Below are positions 1-16,762 of a stretch of 64,000 nt of DNA, piece after piece. The stretch lies in sequence record OW969666.1; one strand, 5' to 3'. Below the pieces are notes generated by a model that worked only from the letters and a program-made list of their open reading frames with translations, searched no databases and was not told the origin of the DNA. The stretch's first letter is position 1; each line of letters begins with the position of its first letter. Position numbers and translations under genes: made by a program. This DNA is from a plasmid.

Positions 1-792
1 GAAGACCGGGTAGCTGAAGAACAGGCGCGTCAGGAACGTGAAAGCAATGTGATCAGACACACCACGCCTGAAATTCCCGCCGACGCTTATCCGGCAACGC
101 TGGTAAAAGCTATGTCAGCCGAACGGACTCTCGCCGTTCAGGCCGAACTGGCGGGTCGTCCCGACGTATCGGTGGCGCTCCTGACGTGGACACTGTGCCT
201 CAGTATGTTTGATCGCAGCTACGGTAAACGCAGCGAACCGCTGAAAGCCTCCGTGTCCTCGAATCAGTATCACCTTGCATCACTGGCTCCATCCGGTGAA
301 GAAGGGAAGGCGCTGACGGCGCTCAAAGCGCAGAAAGAGGCGCTTCAGGCAACGCTGCCCGAAAACTGGCATCTCGATTTCACCTGGCTGCTTTCATGGT
401 CAGCGGAGCAGGTGAACACCCTGCTGGGATTCTGTGCAGCGCACGGTATCAACGGTATTCAGGAACGTATGTACAACCATACGCAGAAAAGCGAACTGGA
501 CGGGCTGGAAGCGGCGCTGGACTTTGACCTGCGCAAATGGTGGCAGCCGGATGCTGAGAGCTACTTCGGCAAGCTCACCATCCCCCAGATTGGCAAAGCC
601 TACGAAGAAGCCGGACTCAGTGCCCGCGCTGGAGAGATTGTGAAGCTCAAGCGCCGCGATGCGGCGAAGGCCGCCGAGCAGGATCTGAATGCTCAGGGCT
701 GGCTGCCTGACTGGATGGTGCGCACATCACCAGCCGCTGAGGCTGAAGAAGCCACCGAAACCGACGCTCACACCACTGACCACGCTGCTTAA
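1..792 (+). CDS. Leading-region ParB/Srx-like nuclease-domain family protein, C-terminal fragment (5' end lies outside window)
   Basis: ORF runs from the window edge to TAA at 790-792. Its position immediately upstream of psiB matches the large ParB-like ORF of IncF leading regions. The acidic Ala/Glu-rich tail is typical. No catalytic motif is visible in this part. Confidence 0.45.
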   Translation, partial: EDRVAEEQARQERESNVIRHTTPEIPADAYPATLVKAMSAERTLAVQAELAGRPDVSVALLTWTLCLSMFDRSYGKRSEPLKASVSSNQYHLASLAPSGEEGKALTALKAQKEALQATLPENWHLDFTWLLSWSAEQVNTLLGFCAAHGINGIQERMYNHTQKSELDGLEAALDFDLRKWWQPDAESYFGKLTIPQIGKAYEEAGLSARAGEIVKLKRRDAAKAAEQDLNAQGWLPDWMVRTSPAAEAEEATETDAHTTDHAA

Positions 793-829
793 TACCGGAG
801 GCCGCCGCCTTCGGGCGGCGGGAACAGAC

Positions 830-1255
830 ATGACTATGCAATATGACCTGAACCAAATCAACAAACTGACCGCCTCCGACCTGGAGTTTATCCGTCAGCA
901 GGGCGAGGACGCGCGCCGCGCTCTCAGCGATACCGTGACCGGCCTCCTGTCCACACCAGAAGGATGGCGCGTCTGCGCCGAATACCGCAGCGAGTTCGGC
1001 GGCTTCTTCCCCGTCCAGTGCCGCTTCAGCGCGGACGGCAGTGATGACTGGCATCTGTGCGTGTGCAGCTCCGGCGAAGTCTCACCGTACTGGCTTCTGG
1101 TGCTGCTCTCCTCCGGCGGGGAAGTGGTGTGTACCCTTTACCAGAGCGACACGCTCCAGCCTGACCGGATACCTGACACGGAAATCGCTTTGCGAAATCC
1201 GGTACAGGGACACGGACAGGGAGGTGGCAGCTTTTATGGCTTACGAATCCGCTAA
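830..1255 (+). CDS. psiB: PsiB (plasmid SOS-inhibition protein B) with a replaced C-terminus from a deletion fusion
   Basis: The sequence MTMQYDL...[16 protein letters not shown]...LCVCSSGEV...[11 protein letters not shown] aligns with F PsiB ([17 protein letters not shown]...LCSPGDV...VLVLVNAGGE). The last ~30 residues ([31 protein letters not shown]) are read from a hok gene in the wrong frame. Confidence 0.75.
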
Positions 1256-1259
1256 GTAG
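1170..1259 (+). pseudogene. hok: hok-family toxin 3' remnant (last 29 codons only)
   Basis: The frame overlapping the psiB 3' end translates to [31 protein letters not shown]. This is nearly identical to the Hok/FlmA C-terminus [28 protein letters not shown]. There is no Hok N-terminus, mok or sok upstream. Confidence 0.7.
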
Positions 1260-1264
1260 CTAAC

Positions 1265-1287
1265 CCCGGCGGGGGGAAACCCCCGCC
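1265..1287. other. GC-rich hairpin (ggcggggg-aaa-cccccgcc) directly after the hok remnant
   Basis: Perfect 8-bp inverted repeat with an AAA loop; it is not followed by a T-tract. It may be part of the hok mRNA 3' fold-back region or an ssDNA structure. Confidence 0.25.
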
Positions 1288-1584
1288 ATTCAGGGGCTGA
1301 GATTGTGTGGACATGCCTGAAGCGCCTTTATGAAGGGGTTGCCGGTTCGCCGGTAGCCCCTTTTTCCTTCCCGACGCGACCGCACGCCTGAACCTCCGGG
1401 AAGGGCTGTTCCCCTGCGGGGAACGGGGGAAGGGGGACGCGCCTTCGGCGCTGCCCCTCTGCTCCCTCTGCCTGATCCTCCCCCCTGCCTGTCCTGCCTG
1501 ATTTTGTTGAATTCGAAACTCTGTGAGCTACCTGCTCATACCGGGCTTCAGCCTGGTGTGCCCGATGTTCTTTATCCCGGGCGT

Positions 1585-2190
1585 CATATCCGGCGTCCTG
1601 CCGGTTAACTTTCGCATCTGCAGCTCCGTGGCTATAACCCGAAAACAGGGCAGGGCGATGGCCCCCTTCGGCTCCCGGCCCGCGTGGCGGTCCGGTCGTC
1701 GAGCCCCACTCCGCCAGGTCGGCTGCTGACGCACCCGCCGGGCTCCGCCGAACCCGCAAGCGGTTTCGGGCTGACGCTAGGGTCTGATGGCTGAGGTCAA
1801 CCCCCTGGCTTGCACCGGCCGGAGGCCGGGCCGCCCTGAGCGCGCCGGCGGAGCCGTCGCTTTAAGGCCGCCACGCCGTTCCGACGTGTCGGGTGCGTGC
1901 ATCCTGTTCACCCGGTGAGGCCATCCCCCGTGCGTCCTCACGCGGAGGGCTGCTTGTAGCACCGTCGGGTCGTCATCCAAGGGGTGAAATGCACTCCGCC
2001 AAAACTTTTTGCGTGCCGCAAAAACTTTTGTCTCCGCCCCTTTCCTTCCGCCCTTCGCCGTTGCTCCTTTTGCCCTTTGCCGCGAGAGAACTCACCAGGG
2101 AGATGGACAACCATCACCACAGGAGAAAACCAGGATGCACACACAAAACGTCAACGTCAAAACCGCCGCTCCCGAATCTTCCAGGAAGAT
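1585..2190 (+). repeat. Leading-region repeat, copy A (~605 bp): GC-rich hairpin-rich region plus palindromic operator-like site, RBS and first ~14 codons of the downstream gene
   Basis: About 95% identical to 4606-5212. It contains the palindrome caaaactttttgcgtgccgcaaaaacttttg, and aggagaaaacc is followed by an ATG. Confidence 0.6.
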
Positions 2191-2449
2191 AGGGGGAAAA
2201 ACCGTGTCGTACACGATCCTCGTCGCTGAGCAGAAAAAAAACTCAGCGGAGGAACCTGATGTTCTGGAGTTCAGCAGCCTGGCTGAGCTGAAGAAACTGC
2301 GCAGACGCTGCCCCGAAACGATGCGCTGCACCTATTTCTACGCCCTCAGCAGCGGCGTCGATAAACAGTTCCGCCATATCCATGTGGCTGAAGCTGACCA
2401 CTTCAAACAGTTTGTGCGCCTGATCGCGCGTGCAGGTATCGACATTTAA
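2135..2449 (+). CDS. Hypothetical leading-region protein (104 aa); N-terminal 14 codons are encoded inside repeat copy A
   Basis: RBS aggagaaaacc precedes ATG 2135, and the ORF reads toward oriT like the other leading genes. Its N-terminus MHTQNVNVKTAAPES is shared with the 5157 gene. Confidence 0.55.
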   Translation: MHTQNVNVKTAAPESSRKIGGKTVSYTILVAEQKKNSAEEPDVLEFSSLAELKKLRRRCPETMRCTYFYALSSGVDKQFRHIHVAEADHFKQFVRLIARAGIDI

Positions 2450-2509
2450 ACACGGTTCACCCCGTGCGGCAGCCGCCGCACGGAACCTCATAAGACAGGA
2501 GCCAGAAAT

Positions 2510-2971
2510 ATGAACGTTAACACCCCGGCCGCTGCACCAATGGCCTTTTTCGTTCCGTCCCATAACGCCGTTTATGACCGCGCAACCCAGCTGGAAGGGC
2601 AGTGGGTGACTCAGCGTGAAGCGATAACGCTGGAATCCCTGCGCCGTCTCTATCCGGATGCGGAGCTGATCCCCGCGACTCTGGTTCAGGAAAAGCAGAA
2701 TGACGGCTATCGCCGTCCCTGGGTGGAAATCACCGGGGCCCGGTACATCGACCAGCTGGAAACGCTGCCGCCAGTGGACTGGTGCAGAGGGTATGGCGGG
2801 GAGTCGTTCAAATCGATGGAGTTTACGGGCGGGGATGTGACCGCAATTTTCGTCCGGTACGGCGCGCGTTTCTTTGAGTGCCATGACCTGCACACCCGCC
2901 ATCACCGGGAGCTGATTGGCGACGTGATCGCCCGTTTCTGTCTCGATGCGCCGCTGAATTCCGCGCATTAA
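2510..2971 (+). CDS. Conserved plasmid leading-region protein (153 aa), possibly YafX/YfjX-like anti-restriction family
   Basis: RBS aggagccagaaat precedes ATG 2510 and the ORF is clean. Its size and neighbourhood resemble the YafX/YfjX class of CP4 prophages and IncF leading regions. The family assignment is not verifiable here. Confidence 0.5.
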   Translation: MNVNTPAAAPMAFFVPSHNAVYDRATQLEGQWVTQREAITLESLRRLYPDAELIPATLVQEKQNDGYRRPWVEITGARYIDQLETLPPVDWCRGYGGESFKSMEFTGGDVTAIFVRYGARFFECHDLHTRHHRELIGDVIARFCLDAPLNSAH

Positions 2972-3058
2972 AAAAGCAGGGTTGCCCCTGCTTTCTCAAC
3001 GCCGGGTAGCCGCAGCAACGGTGAACCGGCAATCACAACCAAAGTAAGGAGATTGATC

Positions 3059-3259
3059 GTGAAATTTGACCCGCAAACTGTCGCACAGGCGAAGGCATTT
3101 GTAAATGCCCTCCGCGCCGGAAAACGCGCTCGCGTACCCGCGCTGCGCTTCTCACAGTGGCAGCCGTTCCTGTCCGTGGTAAATGCCGAAACGGGCTACG
3201 CCACCGATGCTGACTGTGGTCTGGCTGTCAGCGTCTACCCGGCGCTTGGACTGGCTTAA
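3059..3259 (+). CDS. Small hypothetical protein (66 aa; DUF905/YkfF-like size class)
   Basis: aaggag is followed 8 nt later by GTG 3059 (a TTG at 3053 is too close to the SD). Confidence 0.45.
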   Translation: MKFDPQTVAQAKAFVNALRAGKRARVPALRFSQWQPFLSVVNAETGYATDADCGLAVSVYPALGLA

Positions 3260-3299
3260 CAGGAGACGGCCGCCTGCGGGCGGCCGGTAAGGAGAAACC

Positions 3300-4091
3300 A
3301 TGTCACAACTGAGTTTTGAATCCCTGTTCCTGGCAGACCAGGCTGATCTGCAGCCGCGGGCTTCCGCACCGGCCCGGATGCTGTCGCCAGCTGAGGCGCG
3401 TAAACAGTTCGCCAGTGTGTTCCGGCAAACGGCGAAAAATATGCGCCGTTCCGAAGTGTTCAGTGACTTCATCACCCTGGCAGCCAGCGAGCTGGATCTG
3501 GCCCGTATTCGTTCGCCGGAGAACATCGAAAACAGCCGTCGCATCTGCGCACGGTATCAGCCGGACGATTTAGACGCCATGAAGCAGCTGTTCTGCCTGT
3601 TGGTTGAGGGGCTGGCGGGTGACATTCATGATTTCCTCGGCGCTCTGTATATGGAGCAGGAGCTGGGCGCGGACGAAATGGGGCAGTATTTCTCTCCGTC
3701 CTGCATCTCCCGTCTGATGGCCGGACTACTCATGCCCGGCGCTCAGGAGACGATAAAGCGTGAGGGGTGGATGACGCTCGATGAGCCAGCCTGCGGCAGC
3801 GCCGGTATGGTCATTGCCTTTGCATACTGGATGGCTGAAGCGGGATATAACCCGTCTGAACAGCTATATGCCACCTGCACCGACATCGATCCAATGGTGG
3901 CTGATATGGCCTTTATCCAGCTGGCTCTGCTGGGTATTCCCGCGAAAGTCGTGACCGGTAATACGCTGACCCTGAAAGCGAACCGCGTGCGTTACACCCC
4001 CGTGTATTACTTCAATGACTGGCAGGGCCGTCTGGCATTTCGCAGTCGTCTGGATGCAATGAAGAACTTTCTGGCCACCGTGGCCGCCTGA
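3300..4091 (+). CDS. HsdM-like N6-adenine methyltransferase-fold protein (263 aa) without recognisable NPPF/Y catalytic motif
   Basis: GQYFSPSCISRLMAGLL matches the HsdM motif X (GxFYTPxxV). LDEPACGSAGMV matches the SAM motif I (DPACGSGGFL). TDIDPMVADMAFIQLALLGI matches the HsdM (Q/E)EINPTTYRLAKMNLLLHGI block. The ORF ends before an NPPF/Y motif is found. Confidence 0.65.
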   Translation: MSQLSFESLFLADQADLQPRASAPARMLSPAEARKQFASVFRQTAKNMRRSEVFSDFITLAASELDLARIRSPENIENSRRICARYQPDDLDAMKQLFCLLVEGLAGDIHDFLGALYMEQELGADEMGQYFSPSCISRLMAGLLMPGAQETIKREGWMTLDEPACGSAGMVIAFAYWMAEAGYNPSEQLYATCTDIDPMVADMAFIQLALLGIPAKVVTGNTLTLKANRVRYTPVYYFNDWQGRLAFRSRLDAMKNFLATVAA

Positions 4092-4132
4092 CTGACAGAG
4101 CGGCAGGGCAGACCTGCCGCAGGGAGATAAAA

Positions 4133-4468
4133 ATGACAAGCAACACACTGAACGCTGTTCCGGCGACCGTGCTGGAGACCATGGCAGAATGCCTCAACGG
4201 CCAGCCTGAACCGCTAAAAATCCGCAACAACGACGATCACGCTGCACTGGCTGCAGATGTGCTCTGGCAGTTTGCCCGAAAAACCGGGCTGAACAGGGAA
4301 AGCGAGAGCGTGCAAACCGTCATCACTGATTTTCTGGCCAATCTTCTGCACCTGTGCAAACAGTGCGATCCTGACGGGGCAGGTATCGACGGATTTAATG
4401 CCCTGCTGAATATGGCCATGATGCATTATGAGCAGGAAAACGGAGGTGACAGCGAAGAACCAGTTTGA
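4133..4468 (+). CDS. Hypothetical leading-region protein (111 aa)
   Basis: RBS agggagataaaa precedes ATG 4133, and the ORF is co-oriented with the leading genes. Confidence 0.5.
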   Translation: MTSNTLNAVPATVLETMAECLNGQPEPLKIRNNDDHAALAADVLWQFARKTGLNRESESVQTVITDFLANLLHLCKQCDPDGAGIDGFNALLNMAMMHYEQENGGDSEEPV

Positions 4469-4605
4469 TCGGGAGTCTGTGCCCTGGTGGATGCCATCAG
4501 GGCAACCGCAAAAAAACGCTTCCCCTTCGGGGAAACAGGGAGGGCGAAAGCGCCTCCGGCGCTCCTGCCATTCCCCGCTACCGTACTTCTCTCCTTACCT
4601 GCCTT

Positions 4606-5212
4606 CAGAACCGGCGTCCTGCTGGTCAACTTTCTCAGCTGCAGCTTTGTTATGGCCATAACCCGAAAGCAGGGCAGGGCGATGGCCCCCTTCGGCTCCC
4701 GGCCCGCGTGGCGGTCCGGTCGTCGAGCCCCACTCCGCCAGGTCGGCTTCTGACGCACCCGCCGGGCTCCGCCGAACCCGCAAGCGGTTTCGGGCTGACG
4801 CTAGGGTCTGATGGCTGAGGTCAACCCCCTGGCTTGCACCGGCCGGAGGCCGGGCCGCCCTGAGCGCGCCGGCGGAGCCGTCGCTTTAAGGCCGCCACGC
4901 CGTTCCGCCGTGTCGGGTGCGTGCATCCTGTTCACCCGGTGAGGCCATCCCCCGTGCGTCCTCACGCGGAGGGCTGGTCGTAGCACCGTCGGGTCGTCAT
5001 CCGAAGGGTGAAATGCACTCAGACAAAAGTTTTTGCGTGCCGCAAAAACTTTTGTCTGCGCCCTTCTCCTGCCACCCCGCCGTCGCTCCTTTTGCCCTTT
5101 GCCGCGAGAGAACTCACCAGGGAGATGGACAACCATCACCACAGGAGAAAACCAAAATGCACACACGAAACGTCAACGTCAAAACCGCCGCTCAAGAATC
5201 TACCGGAAGATG
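4606..5212 (+). repeat. Leading-region repeat, copy B (~605 bp), upstream of and overlapping the start of the 5157 gene
   Basis: Near-identical to 1585-2190, including the palindromic site, RBS, ATG and first 14 codons. It is preceded by short GC hairpins (ccccttcgggg, gcgcctccggcgc). Confidence 0.6.
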
Positions 5213-5450
5213 TGATTCAAACCTCACCACGTCCCAGTTCACGGATCTGTTCTGCTGGGTCCTGGCAGCATCGGAAGGGGAGCCACAACCGACAATTTTT
5301 ACGCCGCCAGAGAATGCCACTGAGCTGACGTTAATTAATGACGAATGCCCGGATTATATCTCTGTCTGGGTTGTAGATGGTCGCCCGGTGGCAGCTGCAA
5401 TGCCGCTGGATAATTTTCACCGCGTTATTCCTTCATCACTTACTAAATAA
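5157..5450 (+). CDS. Hypothetical leading-region protein (97 aa) sharing its N-terminal 14 residues with the 2135 gene
   Basis: MHTRNVNVKTAAQES is followed by a unique sequence. The ORF starts inside repeat copy B. Confidence 0.55.
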   Translation: MHTRNVNVKTAAQESTGRCDSNLTTSQFTDLFCWVLAASEGEPQPTIFTPPENATELTLINDECPDYISVWVVDGRPVAAAMPLDNFHRVIPSSLTK

Positions 5451-5466
5451 TCAGGAGTAAATAAAA

Positions 5467-6288
5467 ATGGTCAGTTTCGCAAGCCGCTATCGTATGCCTG
5501 TCTCGATCCGTAAAGACCGTCCGCTGACAAATGAGGAATTACAGCTCATCGTTCCGAGCGCGTTCTCATCGGATAAACACGATTCACGCTCTGAACGTTA
5601 TACATATATCCCGACCATAAATATTCTTGACCGTTTACGTGATGAAGGGTTTCAGCCGTATTATGCAACGCAGTCACGCACACGTGACCAGGATAAACGA
5701 GAATTTACAAAACATATGCTTCGCCTGCGTCGTCATGACCAGATTAACGGGAAAGAAGTACCGGAAATTATTCTGCTGAATAGCCATGATGGTTCAAGCA
5801 GCTATAAAATGATCCCCGGTATGTTCCGTCAGGTTTGCAGTAATGGTCTGGTTGCATGGAAGGATTTTGGTGAAATCCGCGTACCCCACAAAGGGGATAT
5901 TGTCGGGCAGGTTATTGAAGGCGCTTACACGGTGCTGAAAACATTTGACGCGGTTGATGAAAATATTGACCTCATGAAAAGCATTCAGCTTACTTTGCCT
6001 GAGCAGCGACTTTTTGGTGCGACCGCTCTGGAACTTAAGTACGATGGAAAACCAGCGCCGATTACGCCGGAGCAAATTATTAACCCACGCCGGGTACTCG
6101 ACAGAGGCCAGGATTTATGGACCACGTTTAACGTAGTACAGGAAAATGTGATCCGTGGGGGGATTCGTGGCAGAACGCAAAAAGGGAAGGTGGCCAGAAC
6201 GCGGGAAGTCACCGGAATTGATGGTGACATCAAATTAAATCAGGTGCTCTGGAAAATGGCGGAGGAGTTTGCAAAACTGAAGGCCTGA
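5467..6288 (+). CDS. DUF932 family protein (YafZ/YfjQ-like, 273 aa)
   Basis: Length and composition match the 273-aa DUF932 proteins of E. coli CP4-6/CP4-57 and plasmid leading regions. RBS caggagtaaataaaa precedes the ATG. Confidence 0.6.
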   Translation: MVSFASRYRMPVSIRKDRPLTNEELQLIVPSAFSSDKHDSRSERYTYIPTINILDRLRDEGFQPYYATQSRTRDQDKREFTKHMLRLRRHDQINGKEVPEIILLNSHDGSSSYKMIPGMFRQVCSNGLVAWKDFGEIRVPHKGDIVGQVIEGAYTVLKTFDAVDENIDLMKSIQLTLPEQRLFGATALELKYDGKPAPITPEQIINPRRVLDRGQDLWTTFNVVQENVIRGGIRGRTQKGKVARTREVTGIDGDIKLNQVLWKMAEEFAKLKA

Positions 6289-6316
6289 AAATTAAGCCGC
6301 TCAACAGAGCGGCTTT

Positions 6317-6856
6317 TTACTGCCCGCTATGTAACGAGGTCGTTTCCGCAATTTGCATTGCATGCTCCTTTCCCGCAGCTGGCGCCAGACGTTCAGAAAG
6401 TAGCTTTTTTCTGGCCAGCAATACACGATATATATTTTTGATATCCTGAGCATACGCCTTGCGCTGCGCAATGAGCTTTTTGCTCGGCCCCGTATTATAC
6501 ATCCCTACGCTGTCCCAGTTTTTTCCGTATGACCTGAAGTTGTGCGCCAGTACCCATGCACCCGTATAAACGCAGATGCATGGATCATTCAACAGTCGCT
6601 CACGGGTAATATTGAAATTTTTAAGTTTACCGTAATGGGAACTGTTCACCTGCATCCCGCAGACATCTTCTGTTCCATTCCTGTTTGATCCATTTATCGC
6701 ACCCGGCTTAAGTCTGCTCTCTTTAATTGAAATTGACATAAGCAGCAGCGGATCAATTTGATAATCTTTCCCGGCCTGATCAAAGCACATCTGGGGAGCT
6801 GCGCCAGCAGACATGGAAAGGGTCAGCAATGCCGCAGGTAGTATCGATATTTTCAT
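6317..6856 (-). CDS. Lytic transglycosylase (F gene X/orf169, R1 P19 family) with signal peptide
   Basis: Signal-peptide N-terminus MKISILPAALLTLSMSAGAA. The catalytic-Glu motif context LMSISIKESRL is present. The gene lies adjacent to oriT, as in F. Confidence 0.8.
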   Translation of the reverse strand: MKISILPAALLTLSMSAGAAPQMCFDQAGKDYQIDPLLLMSISIKESRLKPGAINGSNRNGTEDVCGMQVNSSHYGKLKNFNITRERLLNDPCICVYTGAWVLAHNFRSYGKNWDSVGMYNTGPSKKLIAQRKAYAQDIKNIYRVLLARKKLLSERLAPAAGKEHAMQIAETTSLHSGQ

Positions 6857-6989
6857 GGTTTGGCCTTTTAACGAAATACACGGGCTCTGGAGAGTCGCCT
6901 TAAAAAATACCCCGACGGATCGTCGTAATCAAGTTAATTCACTACAAACGCGCGTGAGCGCTCTCCTGAAGGGATTTAACACCCGTCCG

Positions 6990-7430
6990 AAATAAACATA
7001 TCAGAGCAGTAGACGGTATTAACACGCCGCTCTTTATTAACCCCTTAAAACATCACACCCCACGCAAGACTTTGTCTTGCAGATTTTTCTTTTAATTTCA
7101 GGTGCATATCTGTGATAAATTTGCGCGTTATTGAAGTGTGACCGTCTAATGTCGCACACACCGACACTACACTATCGTATAATCCTGATACCTGTTAGTG
7201 TCGGTATGTCACACATGTATCGTACAATTGTAGATATGCTTTAATTACATTGAATTATATATCGCACAGTGTCACACTGTCGCACATCCTGGTGCTGGAT
7301 TGTACTACTGTACAAAACAGAGATTCGCAGCAGTATCAACCCATTACACCTTTGCACAGCATTTTGATAAACCACCAACAGGCCATATGTAGTGTCGGTT
7401 CCGACACTAACTTAAAACAGGTAAGAAATA
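6990..7430. promoter_or_regulatory. oriT: oriT region; nic motif on the minus strand (cttgcgtggggtgt|gatg, nick ~7054/7055) and TraM-binding palindromes
   Basis: The reverse complement of 7051-7068 matches the F nic consensus GCGTGGGGTGT|GGTG. Several GTCGG/CCGAC-containing palindromes follow (agtgtcggttccgacact at ~7388, cacaccgacactacac, tgtcggtatgtcacaca), typical of TraM sbm sites upstream of traM. Confidence 0.7.
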
Positions 7431-7825
7431 TGGGAAGAGTCGGTATCTACCTTAAAGATAAAATTGAACGCGAGGTTCGCGATATTATTCAACAAGACCT
7501 GCAAAACGGTGCCACCGCAGGAGAAGCAAACATGTCAGCCACCTGCAACGAATTAATCAGGCTTGGGCTTCTGGTTTATAAACGCGATGGCGAGGATGGC
7601 AATCATTTCGATATAGAAGGATACCGAAGGGACCTCATAAGAAAAGCAGCAGGTTCACGCGAAGGTACAGTTCTTATTGCCACACTACTTGCTGAGATGT
7701 ATTTAAAAATGACAGGAAAAGATGGCGAAGGAAGGTTGGAAGATACACTTGATATGATTTTAAACGGCATAAACACAGCCGAGGATGAGGCGGAAACAAG
7801 ACACTTCATCAACGAAAAGAAATAA
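7430..7825 (+). CDS. traM: TraM relaxosome accessory protein (131 aa)
   Basis: MGRVGIYLKDKIEREVRDII...ATCNELIRLGLLVY parallels the F TraM N-terminal DNA-binding region (VNLYISNDAYEKINAIIEKRRQEGA...SFSATASMLLELGL). RBS aggtaagaaat precedes the ATG. Confidence 0.8.
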   Translation: MGRVGIYLKDKIEREVRDIIQQDLQNGATAGEANMSATCNELIRLGLLVYKRDGEDGNHFDIEGYRRDLIRKAAGSREGTVLIATLLAEMYLKMTGKDGEGRLEDTLDMILNGINTAEDEAETRHFINEKK

Positions 7826-7857
7826 ATCCACGAGCCGGAAACCCCGGCTCGAATCGA

Positions 7858-8544
7858 TCACTGGGATGACTTTTCATCCCACGGAAGGTCACTTTTCTCC
7901 ACCTCTCTTATTTTTTCCTTCAGAAACACCTCGAACTCCATACAAAGAACTTTAAGCGCCTGCGCATCCTCGTTCTGGTCAAGTAACCTTTCCGTAAAAT
8001 AACCCAGCGTATTCATCAGACGGGTAAGCATTTCGTCATTAAGACTACGGTTATGAACCTTCGCCATCGCCCTGATTTCATCCGCGAGATTCTCAGGAAT
8101 ACGCATGCTGTAGCCAGTTGTTTTCCCTGGAAGTAAAATTCTTTCACCCTCACGCCACACCCACAACTGCTCCTGTTTGGGCGGGACTTTAACATCTTCC
8201 GCAACATCAACGGATTCACCATCAAGTAATTTCCCCAGCCACTCCTCAAATTTCACCGCCAGTGCAATGAGACGCTCACCCTCCGCATTTTTAATGACAG
8301 GCTTGCCTGGCTGGTAATTCAGCGACAATAAAAGCCTGGCAATAATTTCCTCATTCACGCTTCTGTTGCCAGCTCTGGCACATATTCTCAGCTCCATAAG
8401 CAGATTATCCGGAGCACGCAACCGCCACTCCACCGCTTCACCTGGCTGGAACTTACGTGGACGGCCGCGACCATCCAACAATTTCTCTTTAACTTTCATA
8501 GCTATAGATCCCGGAGGCCATTTCCATACTTTCTGGTCAACCAA
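7858..8544 (-). CDS. Antisense double ribbon-helix-helix protein (TraY-like repeats), 228 aa (start may be the internal Met at ~8499)
   Basis: Two repeats, RAPDNLLMELRICARAGNRSVNEEIIARL and RIPENLADEIRAMAKVHNRSLNDEMLTRL, match the duplicated NRS-containing RHH motif of F TraY. No plus-strand ORF of at least 60 aa exists between traM and traA. Confidence 0.55.
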   Translation of the reverse strand: MVDQKVWKWPPGSIAMKVKEKLLDGRGRPRKFQPGEAVEWRLRAPDNLLMELRICARAGNRSVNEEIIARLLLSLNYQPGKPVIKNAEGERLIALAVKFEEWLGKLLDGESVDVAEDVKVPPKQEQLWVWREGERILLPGKTTGYSMRIPENLADEIRAMAKVHNRSLNDEMLTRLMNTLGYFTERLLDQNEDAQALKVLCMEFEVFLKEKIREVEKSDLPWDEKSSQ

Positions 8545-8695
8545 GCCTACTCACTTACATATTCGGATAAATCTGAATGATTCCAAAAAGTGTGACATGT
8601 GTCACAGTTTTTTTTTTTTAGGGTCATGGGAAAATTGCGCCCGCGTAAACAAGCACTTACGCGAGTCACTTTTGTTTACTTCGGAGAAAACAATC

Positions 8696-9049
8696 ATGTT
8701 AACCAAAGGCAGTGCCCTTAACGTCGGTAAGGGATGGGCGGTAGCGTCTTTATTCCGCAAAGCACGCGAAAATCGCCAGGCTAAATTTTACTTAAAGTCA
8801 GCAGGCGCTTTTTTAATTGCACTTATGGTCACTCACCCGGCATTTGCCGGCGGAACCGACCTTCTTTCCTCACAGAACACCACGGTTAATTCCACCTTCG
8901 GCTCTGGCTCTTCATTGATTAAATGGTTCTATATCGCCGAAATCATCATGGGCCTGTTTATTTACATCAAGGCCCGCTCACCGCTGGTATTCGTCGGTAT
9001 CGTAATGGCAATCATCTTTACCCGTGTCGCCTTCGGCATCGCGAGTTAA
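8696..9049 (+). CDS. traA: TraA propilin
   Basis: TDLLSSQNTTVNSTFGSGSSLIKWFYIAEIIMGLFIYI...IVMAIIFTRVAFGIAS aligns with F pilin DLMASGNTTVKATFGKDSSVVKWVVLAEVLVGAVMYM.... Confidence 0.85.
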   Translation: MLTKGSALNVGKGWAVASLFRKARENRQAKFYLKSAGAFLIALMVTHPAFAGGTDLLSSQNTTVNSTFGSGSSLIKWFYIAEIIMGLFIYIKARSPLVFVGIVMAIIFTRVAFGIAS

Positions 9050-9953: not shown

Positions 9954-10694
9954 ATGAAATTTCGTATTTCACCGGCAGCTGCTGCTGTGTTTCTGGCAGC
10001 GGGATTATTTAACAGCGGCCTCCGGGCCGCTTCCGCACCCGCAGCCATTCCGTTTGAGAACGACGCCGCCTTTAACGTCACTCTCAGCAACACCAACCCG
10101 AGCAAGGTTGTTGTCGACGGAGAACTCATTACCAGCATCAGCGGACCAACCGGTGCCTATGACCAGAGCCAGACCGACGACGGAGCACTCATTCTGTCTC
10201 CACTTGTCAGCCAGAACTTCACGCTGTTTATTCAGACCGATCGCGGCTCATCCCTGAGCCTTAACATCAGGCCGCAGCCAGGTAACGGGAAAACACTGCG
10301 CTTCACTCCGATGTCGCCACCACTTCGCAAGAACGACGATGCGAAGACATGGGAAGAAGGGCAGACCTACGAAAAAACACTGGTCGCACTGTCCCGCGCC
10401 GTAGTCAACGGTCAGGTGCCGGACGACTACCAGGAGTATCCGGTCAGCCGCATGCCTGCATACACACCCGCCAGTGATGTACGCCTGACACCGGAACGCC
10501 AGTTTGTTGGTAACCACCTGCGCGTTGTGCGCTACCGGATGAGCAACCCTGGCAGCATCACCCGCAGCCTGCGCGAGCGCGATTTCTGGCACAAGGGCGT
10601 CCGGGCCGTGATGCTGTCGCAGAACCAGCTTTATGCCGGTGGCGAAGGCTACGCCTGGATTGTGTTTTCAGATGACGGAGACACCCGCCCATGA
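9954..10694 (+). CDS. traK: TraK (secretin-like periplasmic protein, signal peptide)
   Basis: 246 aa with a signal peptide, in the F traK position and size. Its stop overlaps the traB start. Confidence 0.75.
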   Translation: MKFRISPAAAAVFLAAGLFNSGLRAASAPAAIPFENDAAFNVTLSNTNPSKVVVDGELITSISGPTGAYDQSQTDDGALILSPLVSQNFTLFIQTDRGSSLSLNIRPQPGNGKTLRFTPMSPPLRKNDDAKTWEEGQTYEKTLVALSRAVVNGQVPDDYQEYPVSRMPAYTPASDVRLTPERQFVGNHLRVVRYRMSNPGSITRSLRERDFWHKGVRAVMLSQNQLYAGGEGYAWIVFSDDGDTRP

Positions 10695-15976: not shown

Positions 15977-16762
15977 ATGAAAGCAAACAAATTAACTGCA
16001 TTAATAGTTACAACATACATTGGCTTTGTTTCAATGGCACACGCTTCGGCCCCTCAGGCGGTATTCAGTCCGGAGCAGGAGGCTCGTATCGGAGAAATCG
16101 CTGCCGACTATCTGATCTCCCACCCGGAGATTCTCGTGACGGTCAGTCAAAAGCTGCAGGAACAGCAGGAGGTACGTAAGCAGAAAATGTTTGCACTCAG
16201 CGTGATGGAGAATCAGGCGAACCTTCTGCATGATCCGGACACACCGGCTTACGGGCCTGAAAATGCAAAAGTCGCGGTGATTGAATTCTTTGATTACCAG
16301 TGCGTGTTCTGCAGCCGCTTTGCGCCGGAGCTGGAGAAGGTTATGAAAGCGCAGCCGGACGTCCGCTACCACTTTAAGGAGTGGCCAATTTTTGGTGGTC
16401 GCTGGGAAGCTTCATTTCAGGCAGCACAGCAGGGGCTGACGGTCTGGCAAAAGAAAGGGCCGCAGGCCTATGTCACCTATCACAATGCCATCTACGCCAC
16501 CGGTCATAATGAAGGCAAACTGACGGCGGAGGATATTCACGGAGCAGCGTCAAAGGCGGGACTGACCACCCCAGCTCCTGGCGACCATACCGCATCCCTG
16601 GAGAAAAACAGTAACCTGGCTGAGGCGCTGGGACTCACCGGAACGCCGGGGATCATCGTCATGCCCGTTAGCGGAGCGACTCCTGATACCATCACGGTTT
16701 TCCCGGAAGCCGTAACCGCTGAAAGACTCCAGGCAGCAATCCTGAAAGCCACGGCCAGATAG
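15977..16762 (+). CDS. Periplasmic thiol:disulfide interchange protein, DsbC/DsbG-like (CxxC = CVFC), signal peptide
   Basis: Signal peptide, N-terminal dimerisation-like region, and a thioredoxin fold with FFDYQCVFC. Confidence 0.7.
   Translation: MKANKLTALIVTTYIGFVSMAHASAPQAVFSPEQEARIGEIAADYLISHPEILVTVSQKLQEQQEVRKQKMFALSVMENQANLLHDPDTPAYGPENAKVAVIEFFDYQCVFCSRFAPELEKVMKAQPDVRYHFKEWPIFGGRWEASFQAAQQGLTVWQKKGPQAYVTYHNAIYATGHNEGKLTAEDIHGAASKAGLTTPAPGDHTASLEKNSNLAEALGLTGTPGIIVMPVSGATPDTITVFPEAVTAERLQAAILKATAR

Follow-up and report, generated by a model that had tools for sequence, protein, structure and literature searches.

Which plasmid genes act during the first minutes in a newly entered cell, while host defences are operating, is set by ssDNA promoters. 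In the F plasmid, the class 1 promoters Frpo1 and Frpo2 (ssiD, ssp1a/ssp1b) are required for early expression in transconjugants (PMC9849209), and class 1 ssDNA promoters in pESBL were confirmed by 5' RACE (PMC12672017). The ssDNA promoters of classes 2 and 3 (ardA/klcA, M.EcoGIX; F ssp2/"Frpo3") are unrelated in sequence to those of class 1 (PMC12672017). Samuel et al. graded the Salmonella "Frpo*" elements as low-certainty, on the ground of their divergent -35/-10 (PMC11541004).

The window analysed here, a stretch of 64,000 nucleotides (64 kb) of OW969666.1, represents a pECL_A-like IncF plasmid and matches pECL_A and related IncFIB/FII MOBF plasmids at 100% identity over 4.1 kb. Its leading region carries two copies of a module of ~530-610 bp, which pairwise alignment places at 1577-2190 (copy A) and 4598-5212 (copy B). 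The copies are 92-99% identical, both end within unrelated ORFs, and their similarity is gone beyond ~2190 and 5212. A repeat search of the window resolves three collinear direct-repeat blocks, 1629-1928/4653-4952 (300 nt, 99%), 2056-2182/5078-5204 (127 nt, 94%) and 1577-1625/4598-4646 (49 nt, 82%), and a 42-mer from the repeat has exactly two occurrences in the window against none expected from shuffles. The pair of near-identical modules described in an earlier note on this DNA, at a claimed identity of ~95%, is therefore real. The repeat does cover the starts given there (1585 and 4606), but the core kept in other plasmids begins only at ~1659 in copy A (to 2190) and ~4683 in copy B (to 5212); the 80 bp of extra similarity at 1577-1658 is specific to the plasmid lineage of the window. 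Tandem duplication of whole genes, which the same note had set against its own reading, is ruled out by the five different ORFs in the 3 kb between the copies.

The position of the modules relative to the origin of transfer is that of the F elements. The oriT nic-region motif TTGCGTGGGGTGTGATG was located by motif match at 7050-7066 on the minus strand; its strand and position are as in F, where the counterpart (L002 18154-18170, minus) likewise lies between the SLT gene and traM. Because the motif is on the minus strand, that strand is the transferred (T) strand, and the genes downstream of the modules, which lie on the plus strand, have the T strand as their template by orientation. The modules are thus in the leading region with the strand and orientation that had been proposed. 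A Hok-family toxin gene (1101-1259, plus) is situated just 5' of module A, mirroring flmA/hok before Frpo1 in F. Both plasmids have hok, module, ygeA/DUF932, SLT gene, oriT and traM in this order, so that the modules of the window are placed like Frpo1 (between hok and ygeA/DUF932, with oriT beyond). In a Klebsiella plasmid, a module of the same subfamily also stands ahead of ParB-psiB-psiA, in the place of Frpo2.

The comparison with F Frpo/ssi sequences that the earlier note had suggested reveals homology: pairwise blastn to F Frpo1 gives 64% identity over 239 nt (E = 7e-17), accompanied by conserved blocks and the shared place in the gene order. The homology to F ssiD is distant, since standard blastn aligns only patches of 27-34 nt and nothing longer; a block-wise alignment of 51 modules, comprising F-type and window-type classes, nevertheless holds together.

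DNA folding gives each module a ~250-nt imperfect hairpin on the minus strand, at 1893-2144 in copy A and 4917-5166 in copy B. The minus-strand folds reach -154.9 kcal/mol for copy A (z = -5.4) and -158.5 kcal/mol for copy B (z = -7.1), and over 1840-2200 the minus strand folds at -97.5 (z = -6.6) versus -71.8 (z = -2.55) for the plus strand. Across the family, the T strand folds more stably than its complement in 51 of 51 members, with a mean difference (T strand minus complement) of -18 kcal/mol in the class of the window modules (p = 5e-10). The consensus hairpin comprises 62 pairs, in which 98% of cells are paired as compared with 38-51% when the partners are slid, and 13 pairs have changed on both sides; the observed values were reached in 0 of 500 shuffles. 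The basal stem of hairpin A contains the complement of the Shine-Dalgarno (SD) flank and the ATG, and codon 2 of the translated leader (CAC/AAC) covaries with its partner in the opposite arm. The long T-strand hairpin anticipated by the earlier note is accordingly present in both copies. Its apex is the AT-rich palindrome CAAAACTTTTTGCG/CGCAAAAACTTTTG (A 2000-2030; B 5024-5054), identified by repeat search and folding. The palindrome had been taken for an operator-like site; it is genuine as a palindrome, but it is simply the tip of the hairpin and is replaced by other sequence in about one third of the family members.

A sigma-70 consensus scan found no canonical -35/-10 pair in the modules and no canonical duplex promoter on the plus strand before the module-linked genes. 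Candidate elements may be recognised at 1980-1953 on the minus strand of copy A, as TTGGAT (1980-1975), N16 and TGc-TACAAG (1961-1953), and at the equivalent place in copy B (5005-4977, minus), where the putative -10 reads TACGAC. The arrangement TTGGAT-N16-TGcTACAAG is located on the 3' arm of the T-strand hairpin; the candidate -10 has no T at -7 and the candidate -35 matches the consensus at 3/6 positions. Around these elements, the family members share an invariant GGTGCTAC and a conserved CCCTTG, and in the predicted fold the bases ACAAG of the -10 candidate fall in an internal loop that faces AAAAG. For F Frpo, Masai and Arai reportedly found in 1997 that mismatches or a bubble near the -10 and the start site are important. 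Of the -35 and -10 elements that the hairpin was expected to recreate, the modules show a weak TTG-N16-TGcTAC arrangement and no canonical pair.

Taken on its sequence, each repeat is probably a Frpo/ssi-type class 1 ssDNA promoter module of the IncF leading region. The earlier note had read the repeats as Frpo-type; location, strand, hairpin, homology and gene order agree with it, while canonical -35/-10 elements do not form part of the picture. During conjugation, the minus strand would be led into the recipient by its 5' end, starting at the nick near 7052, so that module B and then module A would arrive single-stranded and could fold into the ~250-nt imperfect hairpin, which would resemble a duplex promoter. 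Host sigma-70 RNA polymerase would bind the hairpin and transcribe rightwards with the T strand as template, and unit A (ygeA, three small ORFs and the methylase gene) and unit B (orf97 and DUF932) would be expressed before complementary-strand synthesis. Second-strand synthesis would remove the hairpin and turn the promoter off; as has been reported of F Frpo, the transcript may double as a primer for this synthesis. Transcription from ssDNA, the positions of the -35/-10 and +1, and the timing of expression are what we infer.

The identity of the two copies continues in pairwise alignment through the SD, the ATG and a leader, MHT(Q/R)NVNVKTAA(P/Q)ES. Alignment places the SD AGGAG at 2121-2125 in copy A, 9 nt before the ATG, and at 5143-5147 in copy B; the translated leaders are MHTQNVNVKTAAPESSRKI at 2135-2191 (ATG at 2135) and MHTRNVNVKTAAQESTGRC at 5157-5213 (ATG at 5157), all on the plus strand. 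Past the leader, the ORFs at 2135 and 5157 diverge into unrelated proteins, as had been claimed, with no BLASTP match between them at E<=100. The shared ribosome-binding site, ATG and first codons likewise stand, at 15-19 codons instead of 14, and the leader contributes these first ~15-19 codons in frame to a wide range of unrelated small genes. Of the 40 complete instances drawn from species-representative genomes, 38 have an ATG frame that remains open over 69-167 codons, and 37 of these 38 lead into recognisable cargo; at least nine unrelated cargo families follow. Inclusion of database proteins raises this to at least 12-14 unrelated families, confirming the suggestion that the leader would be found on different genes elsewhere, and the leader is at the extreme N-terminus in 120 of 120 database proteins among the matches listed. 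One-nucleotide indels near the leader end are accompanied by cargo in the matching new frame. Nested leader remnants are seen inside some ORFs.

An SD, an ATG and 15-19 codons, carried by the basal stem and its 5' flank and read into the next gene, would make the module a complete transcription-plus-translation start unit, with the leader ATG as the putative start of the cargo genes. Copies within one plasmid homogenise each other through homologous recombination or gene conversion. Translation of the leader may not be obligatory, because the cargo of one instance (L044) is out of frame with it; a possible second start is present near the junction in some cargo genes, e.g., GTG at 2204 after GGGGG. 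Conservation of the leader is mainly a DNA-level constraint, since the same 19-nt box, AACGTCAAAACCGCSGCTC, is invariant yet non-coding in F-type modules. A shared translated leader of ssDNA-promoter modules was not found in the literature searched; in their main text and their supplementary table of Frpo elements, Samuel et al. 2024 describe neither the leader nor the strand-specific covariation or the upstream domain.

This upstream domain, a conserved multi-hairpin region on the minus strand (A 1659-1860; B 4683-4884), forms the upstream half of the module and lies 3' of the main hairpin on the T strand. The motifs GCCATCAGACCCTAGC, GCCCGAAACC, TTCGGCGGAG and GGAGCCGAAGG are invariant in it. 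It is kept in F-like modules too (~78% over 190 nt) and is the best-conserved part of the module between the F-type and window-type classes; its T strand folds more stably than the opposite strand in 24 of 24 cases, and compensatory pair types occur at 16 of 36 predicted pairs. Its role is not explained by the ssDNA promoter model. These T-strand-biased, covarying hairpins, with no obvious promoter role, favour a reading partly compatible with the promoter one, in which the modules serve first of all for single-strand initiation or replication control, with the hairpin and the upstream domain as priming sites or roadblocks for complementary-strand synthesis, and mRNA is secondary or absent. 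The F Frpo element was originally isolated under the name ssiD, and RNA made from it primes DNA synthesis in vitro (PMC7690428, citing Masai and Arai 1997), and F ssp2, a different ssDNA promoter, stalls conversion at its stem (10.64898/2026.01.09.698686). The SD, ATG and in-frame ORF directly after every module are, however, hard to explain without mRNA, and the consensus scan detects no other promoter for the module-linked genes, which leaves an initiation element as the primary function unlikely.

The same structure could in principle be that of a minus-sense antisense or small RNA, transcribed leftwards from the duplex and regulating translation of all leader-bearing mRNAs through pairing with their common SD/ATG. 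The bias in G-T (G-U) wobbles is in favour of the minus-sense strand for RNA and ssDNA alike, the minus strand has -35-like TTGACG and TTGACC at 2160-2149 and near 1800, and a weak terminator-like site is present on it at 1665-1652. Nevertheless, the consensus scan yields no acceptable -10 at the correct spacing, and the 6-nt in-frame indel that the leader carries among family members alters the spacing to the nearest candidate -10. A search with the covariance models of Rfam 15 gave no match within either module on either strand at E<=1, and the homologous F elements have been shown experimentally to have ssDNA promoter activity; we regard such an RNA as very unlikely. Still a little less probable is an ordinary duplex promoter and 5'-UTR spread by a recent segmental duplication, with the hairpin incidental. 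Copies A and B are indeed each other's closest relatives in the family comparison (92.3%, the 300-nt tract at 99%). Against a recent origin, the module is ancient, homologous to F Frpo and widespread, its hairpin-plus-leader segment occurring in 1533 PLSDB records from many genera, mostly Klebsiella, Enterobacter and Citrobacter; the structure is moreover strand-specific and kept via compensatory changes, and the plus strand is devoid of a sigma-70 consensus promoter.

The genes behind the two modules, all on the plus strand, are mostly small. The first cargo of module A (2135-2449) is a YgeA homologue, whose residues 15-104 are 67% identical to residues 2-91 of F YgeA; it is followed in unit A by a 153-aa ORF with a weak DUF1419 match (2510-2971), a small ORF (3059-3259), an orphan protein with an N6-methylase domain match (3300-4091) and a 111-aa ORF (4133-4468). 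Unit B consists of the 97-aa orf97 (5157-5450), which matches no family and has no other in-frame start from the leader to its conserved core, and a DUF932 protein (5467-6288) that is the counterpart of F ygeB. The anti-defence role assigned to this cargo is unproven, as the orphan N6-methylase domain and the YgeA homologue are all that is recognisable. The earlier note had also suggested a recombination cassette system for swapping cargo, and the many different cargo genes behind one module, its fairly sharp end ~55 nt past the ATG and the nested remnants might suggest recombination sites (integron-like, attC-like) or a miniature mobile element, but this is the least credible of the readings: the annotation of the 40 kb surrounding the identical stretch of pECL_A includes no integrase or recombinase, with only IS transposases further upstream; no terminal inverted repeats, target duplications or defined recombination sites were seen; the junctions vary by cargo family from codon 15 to 21 and look illegitimate; and the module is upstream of its cargo only, all copies having the same orientation and lying in leading regions only.

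The subfamily to which the modules belong is very common in clinically important plasmids and has so far been listed solely as a low-certainty candidate. If the ssDNA promoter reading is confirmed, the experimentally grounded biology of Frpo would reach resistance plasmids of the IncF(K) type, no fewer than 14 orphan protein families would become candidates for early-expressed establishment or anti-defence functions, and a promoter module would be shown able to standardise translation initiation too. The leader tag M-x-T-x-N-V-(N-V)-K-T-A-A offers a simple sequence handle for finding such genes, and the upstream domain, present in F as well, is a testable lead outside current models of Frpo function. 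A more far-reaching version, rather unlikely as a whole, would make the subfamily a portable first-minutes expression cassette with in-frame recruitment, the leader peptide functional in itself (e.g., as a degron or targeting signal through which all early proteins become transient) and the upstream domain a second, previously undescribed ssDNA element controlling priming or conversion.

Comparison of the window modules with F Frpo1 and Frpo2 reveals that both are leading-region, T-strand-oriented, dispersed direct repeats of ~600 nt (L002 10016-10622 and 15404-16012 in F) with a long imperfect hairpin and an AT-rich apex. The blocks GTGCATTTCACCC, TCGC(G/C)GCAA(A)GGGCA and the 19-nt box are common to the two types, along with the upstream domain, and the identity in the hairpin is ~62-66%, whereas the TTGAGA and CTGGAC blocks of the F type are replaced by GGTGAGT and CTTGGAT in the window modules. 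F-type modules have no ATG before the 19-nt box, and their downstream genes use their own SD/ATG 30-60 nt further; the window modules, in contrast, supply SD, ATG and 15-19 codons. Related candidates from a Salmonella enterica conjugative element are listed in Supplementary Table 2 of Samuel et al. 2024: "Frpo* 5" is 77% identical over 396 nt (E = 1e-74) and "Frpo* 7" is 76% identical over 277 nt to a window module. "Frpo* 5/6/7" belong to the same subfamily, and the extracted candidates stop exactly at the homologous ATG. The class 1 elements ssi1-3 of ColIb-P9/pESBL (IncI1) are also dispersed leading-region repeats with hairpins, each before an early-expressed operon, but they are far more distant, with weak similarity at the apex (74% over 66-74 nt). 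In the integron platform, one upstream unit gives expression signals to interchangeable promoterless cassettes. The window modules differ in having no integrase or attC, in that the fusion is translational, and in that the promoter would act on ssDNA. With the promoters of classes 2 and 3, they share the concept of a stem-loop promoter active on the entering strand only (PMC12672017).

The repeats that form module A (1577-2190) and module B (4598-5212) are direct, and each lies ahead of plus-strand genes. A repeat search of the window resolved them into three collinear blocks, 1629-1928/4653-4952 (300 nt, 99%), 2056-2182/5078-5204 (127 nt, 94%) and 1577-1625/4598-4646 (49 nt, 82%), and a 42-mer derived from them occurs exactly twice in the window, where zero occurrences are expected. 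In the pairwise alignment, identity extends across AGGAG (2121-2125/5143-5147), the ATG (2135/5157) and the codons MHT(Q/R)NVNVKTAA(P/Q)ES, and ends near 2190/5212. Past these shared codons, here termed the leader, the first ORFs of the two modules give no BLASTP match to each other at E ≤ 100. The repeat blocks, the alignment and the BLASTP result confirm the earlier note, which described near-identical modules with a common RBS, ATG and first codons followed by unrelated ORFs. Its alternative, a tandem duplication including whole genes, is excluded by the five differing ORFs in the 3 kb between the copies.

pECL_A of Enterobacter cloacae ATCC 13047, like many IncFIB/FII MOBF plasmids of Enterobacter, matches 1400-5500 at 100% identity. 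In the annotation of this identical DNA, a gene for a Hok-family toxin (1101-1259) precedes module A, and five ORFs stand between module A and module B, one of them encoding a protein with an N6-methylase domain (N6_Mtase, 3300-4091). Module B is followed by a small ORF, a gene for a DUF932 protein (5467-6288), an opposite-strand lytic transglycosylase gene (6317-6856), a gene in the TraM position and the tra genes. The minus-strand motif TTGCGTGGGGTGTGATG at 7050-7066 is, going by established knowledge of F oriT, what we take to be the nic region; its counterpart in F, TTGCGTGGGGTGTGGTG, shares this strand and lies between traM and the SLT gene. This identifies the minus strand as the transferred (T) strand. 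It would enter 5'-first toward lower coordinates and would be the template for the plus-strand genes. The proposal that the modules are Frpo-type elements (ssDNA promoters of IncF leading regions), oriented ahead of genes transcribed toward oriT, is thus well supported by position and strand. At the 5' side of module A, psiB (830-1259) seems truncated, with Pfam PsiB matching ORF residues 6-114 over profile positions 3-111 of 139. The same ORF continues directly into the hok/mok region (DUF5431 match; Hok CDS 1101-1259), and psiA is absent between psiB and hok, in contrast to F and to a Klebsiella plasmid (L068).

Folding of the minus strand as ssDNA, the check proposed in the earlier note, yields a long imperfect hairpin in each copy (1893-2144 and 4917-5166), and its energy is far lower than shuffling would give (z = -5.4, -7.1, -6.6). 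Over an identical segment the plus strand is much less stable (-71.8 vs -97.5 kcal/mol; plus z = -2.55). The T strand is the stabler one in 51/51 distinct family members, by a mean of -18 kcal/mol in the window-type class and -11 kcal/mol in the F-like class (p = 5e-10). Among 22 diverse members, the consensus hairpin comprises 62 pairs, of which 98% of cells are paired, vs 38-51% with partners slid; both-side changes are found in 13 pairs, and 0/500 shuffles match the observed values. The complement of the start codon sits in the basal helix, and codon 2 (CAC or AAC) covaries with its partner in the opposite arm. The palindrome previously read as an operator-like site is the hairpin tip. Because several members have another sequence at the tip, this AT-rich apex is not universal and does not qualify as a conserved operator. 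Another small palindrome, ATCTTCCAGGAAGAT at 2172-2186, was dropped, its palindromic form not being retained in other members. The modules have no match in Rfam (scan of 1-9000, both strands, E ≤ 1).

The hairpin had been expected to recreate -35/-10 elements. Its stability is borne out, but a strict consensus scan of both strands turned up no sigma-70 promoter within the modules or ahead of them, and the boxes present are non-canonical. The absence agrees with Samuel et al. (PMC11541004), who remark that the boxes of the Frpo* candidates diverge. The best conserved candidate is located in the 3' arm of the T-strand hairpin: TTGGAT (1980-1975), a 16-nt spacer and TGc-TACAAG (1961-1953). Across the family, GGTGCTAC is invariant and CCCTTG is conserved, and the final bases of the -10-like hexamer fall within a predicted internal loop. 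Alternatively, the promoter could lie on the 5' arm, at the place homologous to an invariant F-type block (TTGAGA-N17-19), although in the window modules TTGAGA is replaced by GGTGAGT. The TTGACG of the conserved 19-nt box, as a -35 element, was rejected: no -10 lies at a fixed distance from it, and a 6-nt indel shifts the spacing. If the 3'-arm candidate is the promoter, RNA would start near 2075-2095, with a ~50-nt 5' UTR that includes the SD. A plus-strand site at 1590-1604 and 4611-4625 could terminate transcription arriving from the preceding unit.

The segment best conserved between the two classes of modules is an upstream domain at 1659-1860/4683-4884, ~78% identical over 190 nt to F-like copies. 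The T strand is favoured in 24/24 cases, and several small hairpins are predicted, with compensatory pair types in 16/36 pairs (own script) and invariant single-stranded motifs between them. This domain lies outside the F ssiD sequence given as known Frpo in Supplementary Table 2 of Samuel et al. A lone partial copy, consisting of the upstream domain only (81% over 192 nt), is found ahead of a DUF3560 gene at L068:850-1036, which suggests that the domain can exist without the main hairpin.

Similarity to F Frpo is supported as well, the window modules aligning with Frpo1 at 64% over 239 nt (E = 7e-17, alignment and blastn). A scan of species-representative genomes returned 65 loci with the 19-nt box AACGTCAAAACCGCSGCTC, which form two classes alignable block by block. 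Among the low-certainty candidates that Samuel et al. 2024 (PMC11541004) tabulate in their supplement are Frpo* 5-7, from Salmonella, and Frpo* 5 is 77% identical to module A over 396 nt (E = 1e-74). The hairpin-plus-leader segment is present in 1533 PLSDB plasmids, mainly of Klebsiella, Enterobacter, Citrobacter and Serratia, often in 2-4 copies per plasmid. F-type Frpo sequences, some almost identical to F, also occur on short contigs (L011, L017, L018, L023, L024, L005, L008, L041, L060, L062) of assemblies labelled Streptomyces, Brachybacterium, Collinsella, Acinetobacter, Oscillibacter, Lachnospiraceae and Erysipelotrichaceae; the likeliest source is enterobacterial plasmid DNA that contaminated these public assemblies or was mis-binned into them.

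The two classes differ in the start of translation. F-type modules lack an ATG ahead of the box, and each downstream gene has its own SD and ATG 30-60 nt later, whereas in the window-type class an SD and ATG precede the box by 12 or 18 nt. The frame from the leader ATG is open for 69-167 codons in 38/40 complete instances and reaches a recognisable cargo protein in 37 of those 38; independent junctions would be in frame once in three by chance. Three instances depart from this (L020, L064, L044): two have apparent frameshifts, and in the third the cargo is out of frame and has a GTG of its own. A 6-nt indel within the leader preserves the frame, and where 1-nt indels near its end give SRKMG, GRC or ERWG versions of the same DNA, the cargo is in the matching frame each time. 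In orf97, the first cargo of module B, no further in-frame start lies between leader and conserved core. These features make translation of the leader very probable. A constraint on the DNA best accounts for its conservation: the same 19 nt are invariant in F-type modules, where they do not code, and the variable codons (2, 4, 13, 15-19) swap amino acids freely. RefSeq start calls are inconsistent: the module A cargo begins at the leader ATG, and the module B cargo (5013-5450, pECL_A CDS ECL_RS26360) at an ATG in the hairpin apex, probably a longest-ORF artefact.

The expectation that the leader would be attached to different genes elsewhere is borne out by at least 9 BLASTP-unrelated cargo families among the genome loci, and at least 14 with the addition of 120 database proteins found by a leader-dominated profile (leader plus unrelated cargo). 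All 120 are small, unnamed and without Pfam domains, and each begins with the leader. Module A has a YgeA homologue as its first cargo (residues 15-104 vs F YgeA 2-91, 67% identity). F YgeA itself starts with MSTRNIHVNTA, which resembles the leader, and from this likeness the leader looks like a duplicated YgeA N-terminus. A 144-aa leader-tagged Klebsiella ORF (L068:16499-16933) contains a second, internal leader-like stretch, QNVNINTAARESAGQW, apparently the relic of a previous module fusion. In F (L002 ~15990-16036, 10600-10646), the conserved module tail GATGATGGGGGCTGAAAAC begins a short ORF; before ygeA it reads MMGAENQREEKAG, its TGA overlapping the ygeA ATG (ATGA), and ahead of ssb it shares the reading frame of the ssb ATG, which may reflect translational coupling or chance.

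Copies A and B are 92.3% alike, with the 300-nt tract at 99%, vs 85-90% to modules preceding orthologous cargo in other plasmids, and the four copies of the Klebsiella plasmid are 92-97% alike. This pattern indicates gene conversion or recent within-plasmid copying. It does not indicate dedicated machinery, such as the recombination cassette system for cargo swapping suggested earlier: the annotation of the identical pECL_A region places no recombinase near the modules, and leader/cargo junction positions differ. Integron and MITE readings were rejected.

What can be recognised in the cargo is limited to N6_Mtase, DUF932, the YgeA homology and, weakly, DUF1419 (2510-2971). Neither Pfam nor NCBIfam nor PHROGs assigned a function to YgeA, orf97, orf111 or orf68. 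In F, deletion of ygeA strongly lowers transfer, and YgeA is made early from Frpo1 (PMC9849209). A putative anti-defence role of the window cargo is plausible. Between a 153-aa ORF and the small ORF after it, the minus strand at 2971-3060 weakly matches the Rfam family AS-pc01, 'Antisense to pHK01_035' (31.4 bits vs a gathering score of 79, E = 0.021).

In the searched literature we did not find described an in-frame translated leader common to many cargo families, covariation reaching into a coding leader, or the conserved upstream domain. The family itself is already known, the window-type subfamily having previously been a low-certainty candidate. Position, strand, homology and a strand-specific conserved structure make the proposed assignment of the modules as putative Frpo-type elements well supported, but their promoter boxes are non-canonical. 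The F plasmid also carries two ~600-nt repeats, and its order hok, Frpo1, ygeA, DUF932 (ygeB), SLT gene, oriT, traM is that of the window. Likewise, one of the four module copies in the Klebsiella plasmid precedes the ParB-psiB-psiA genes, the position of Frpo2 in F.
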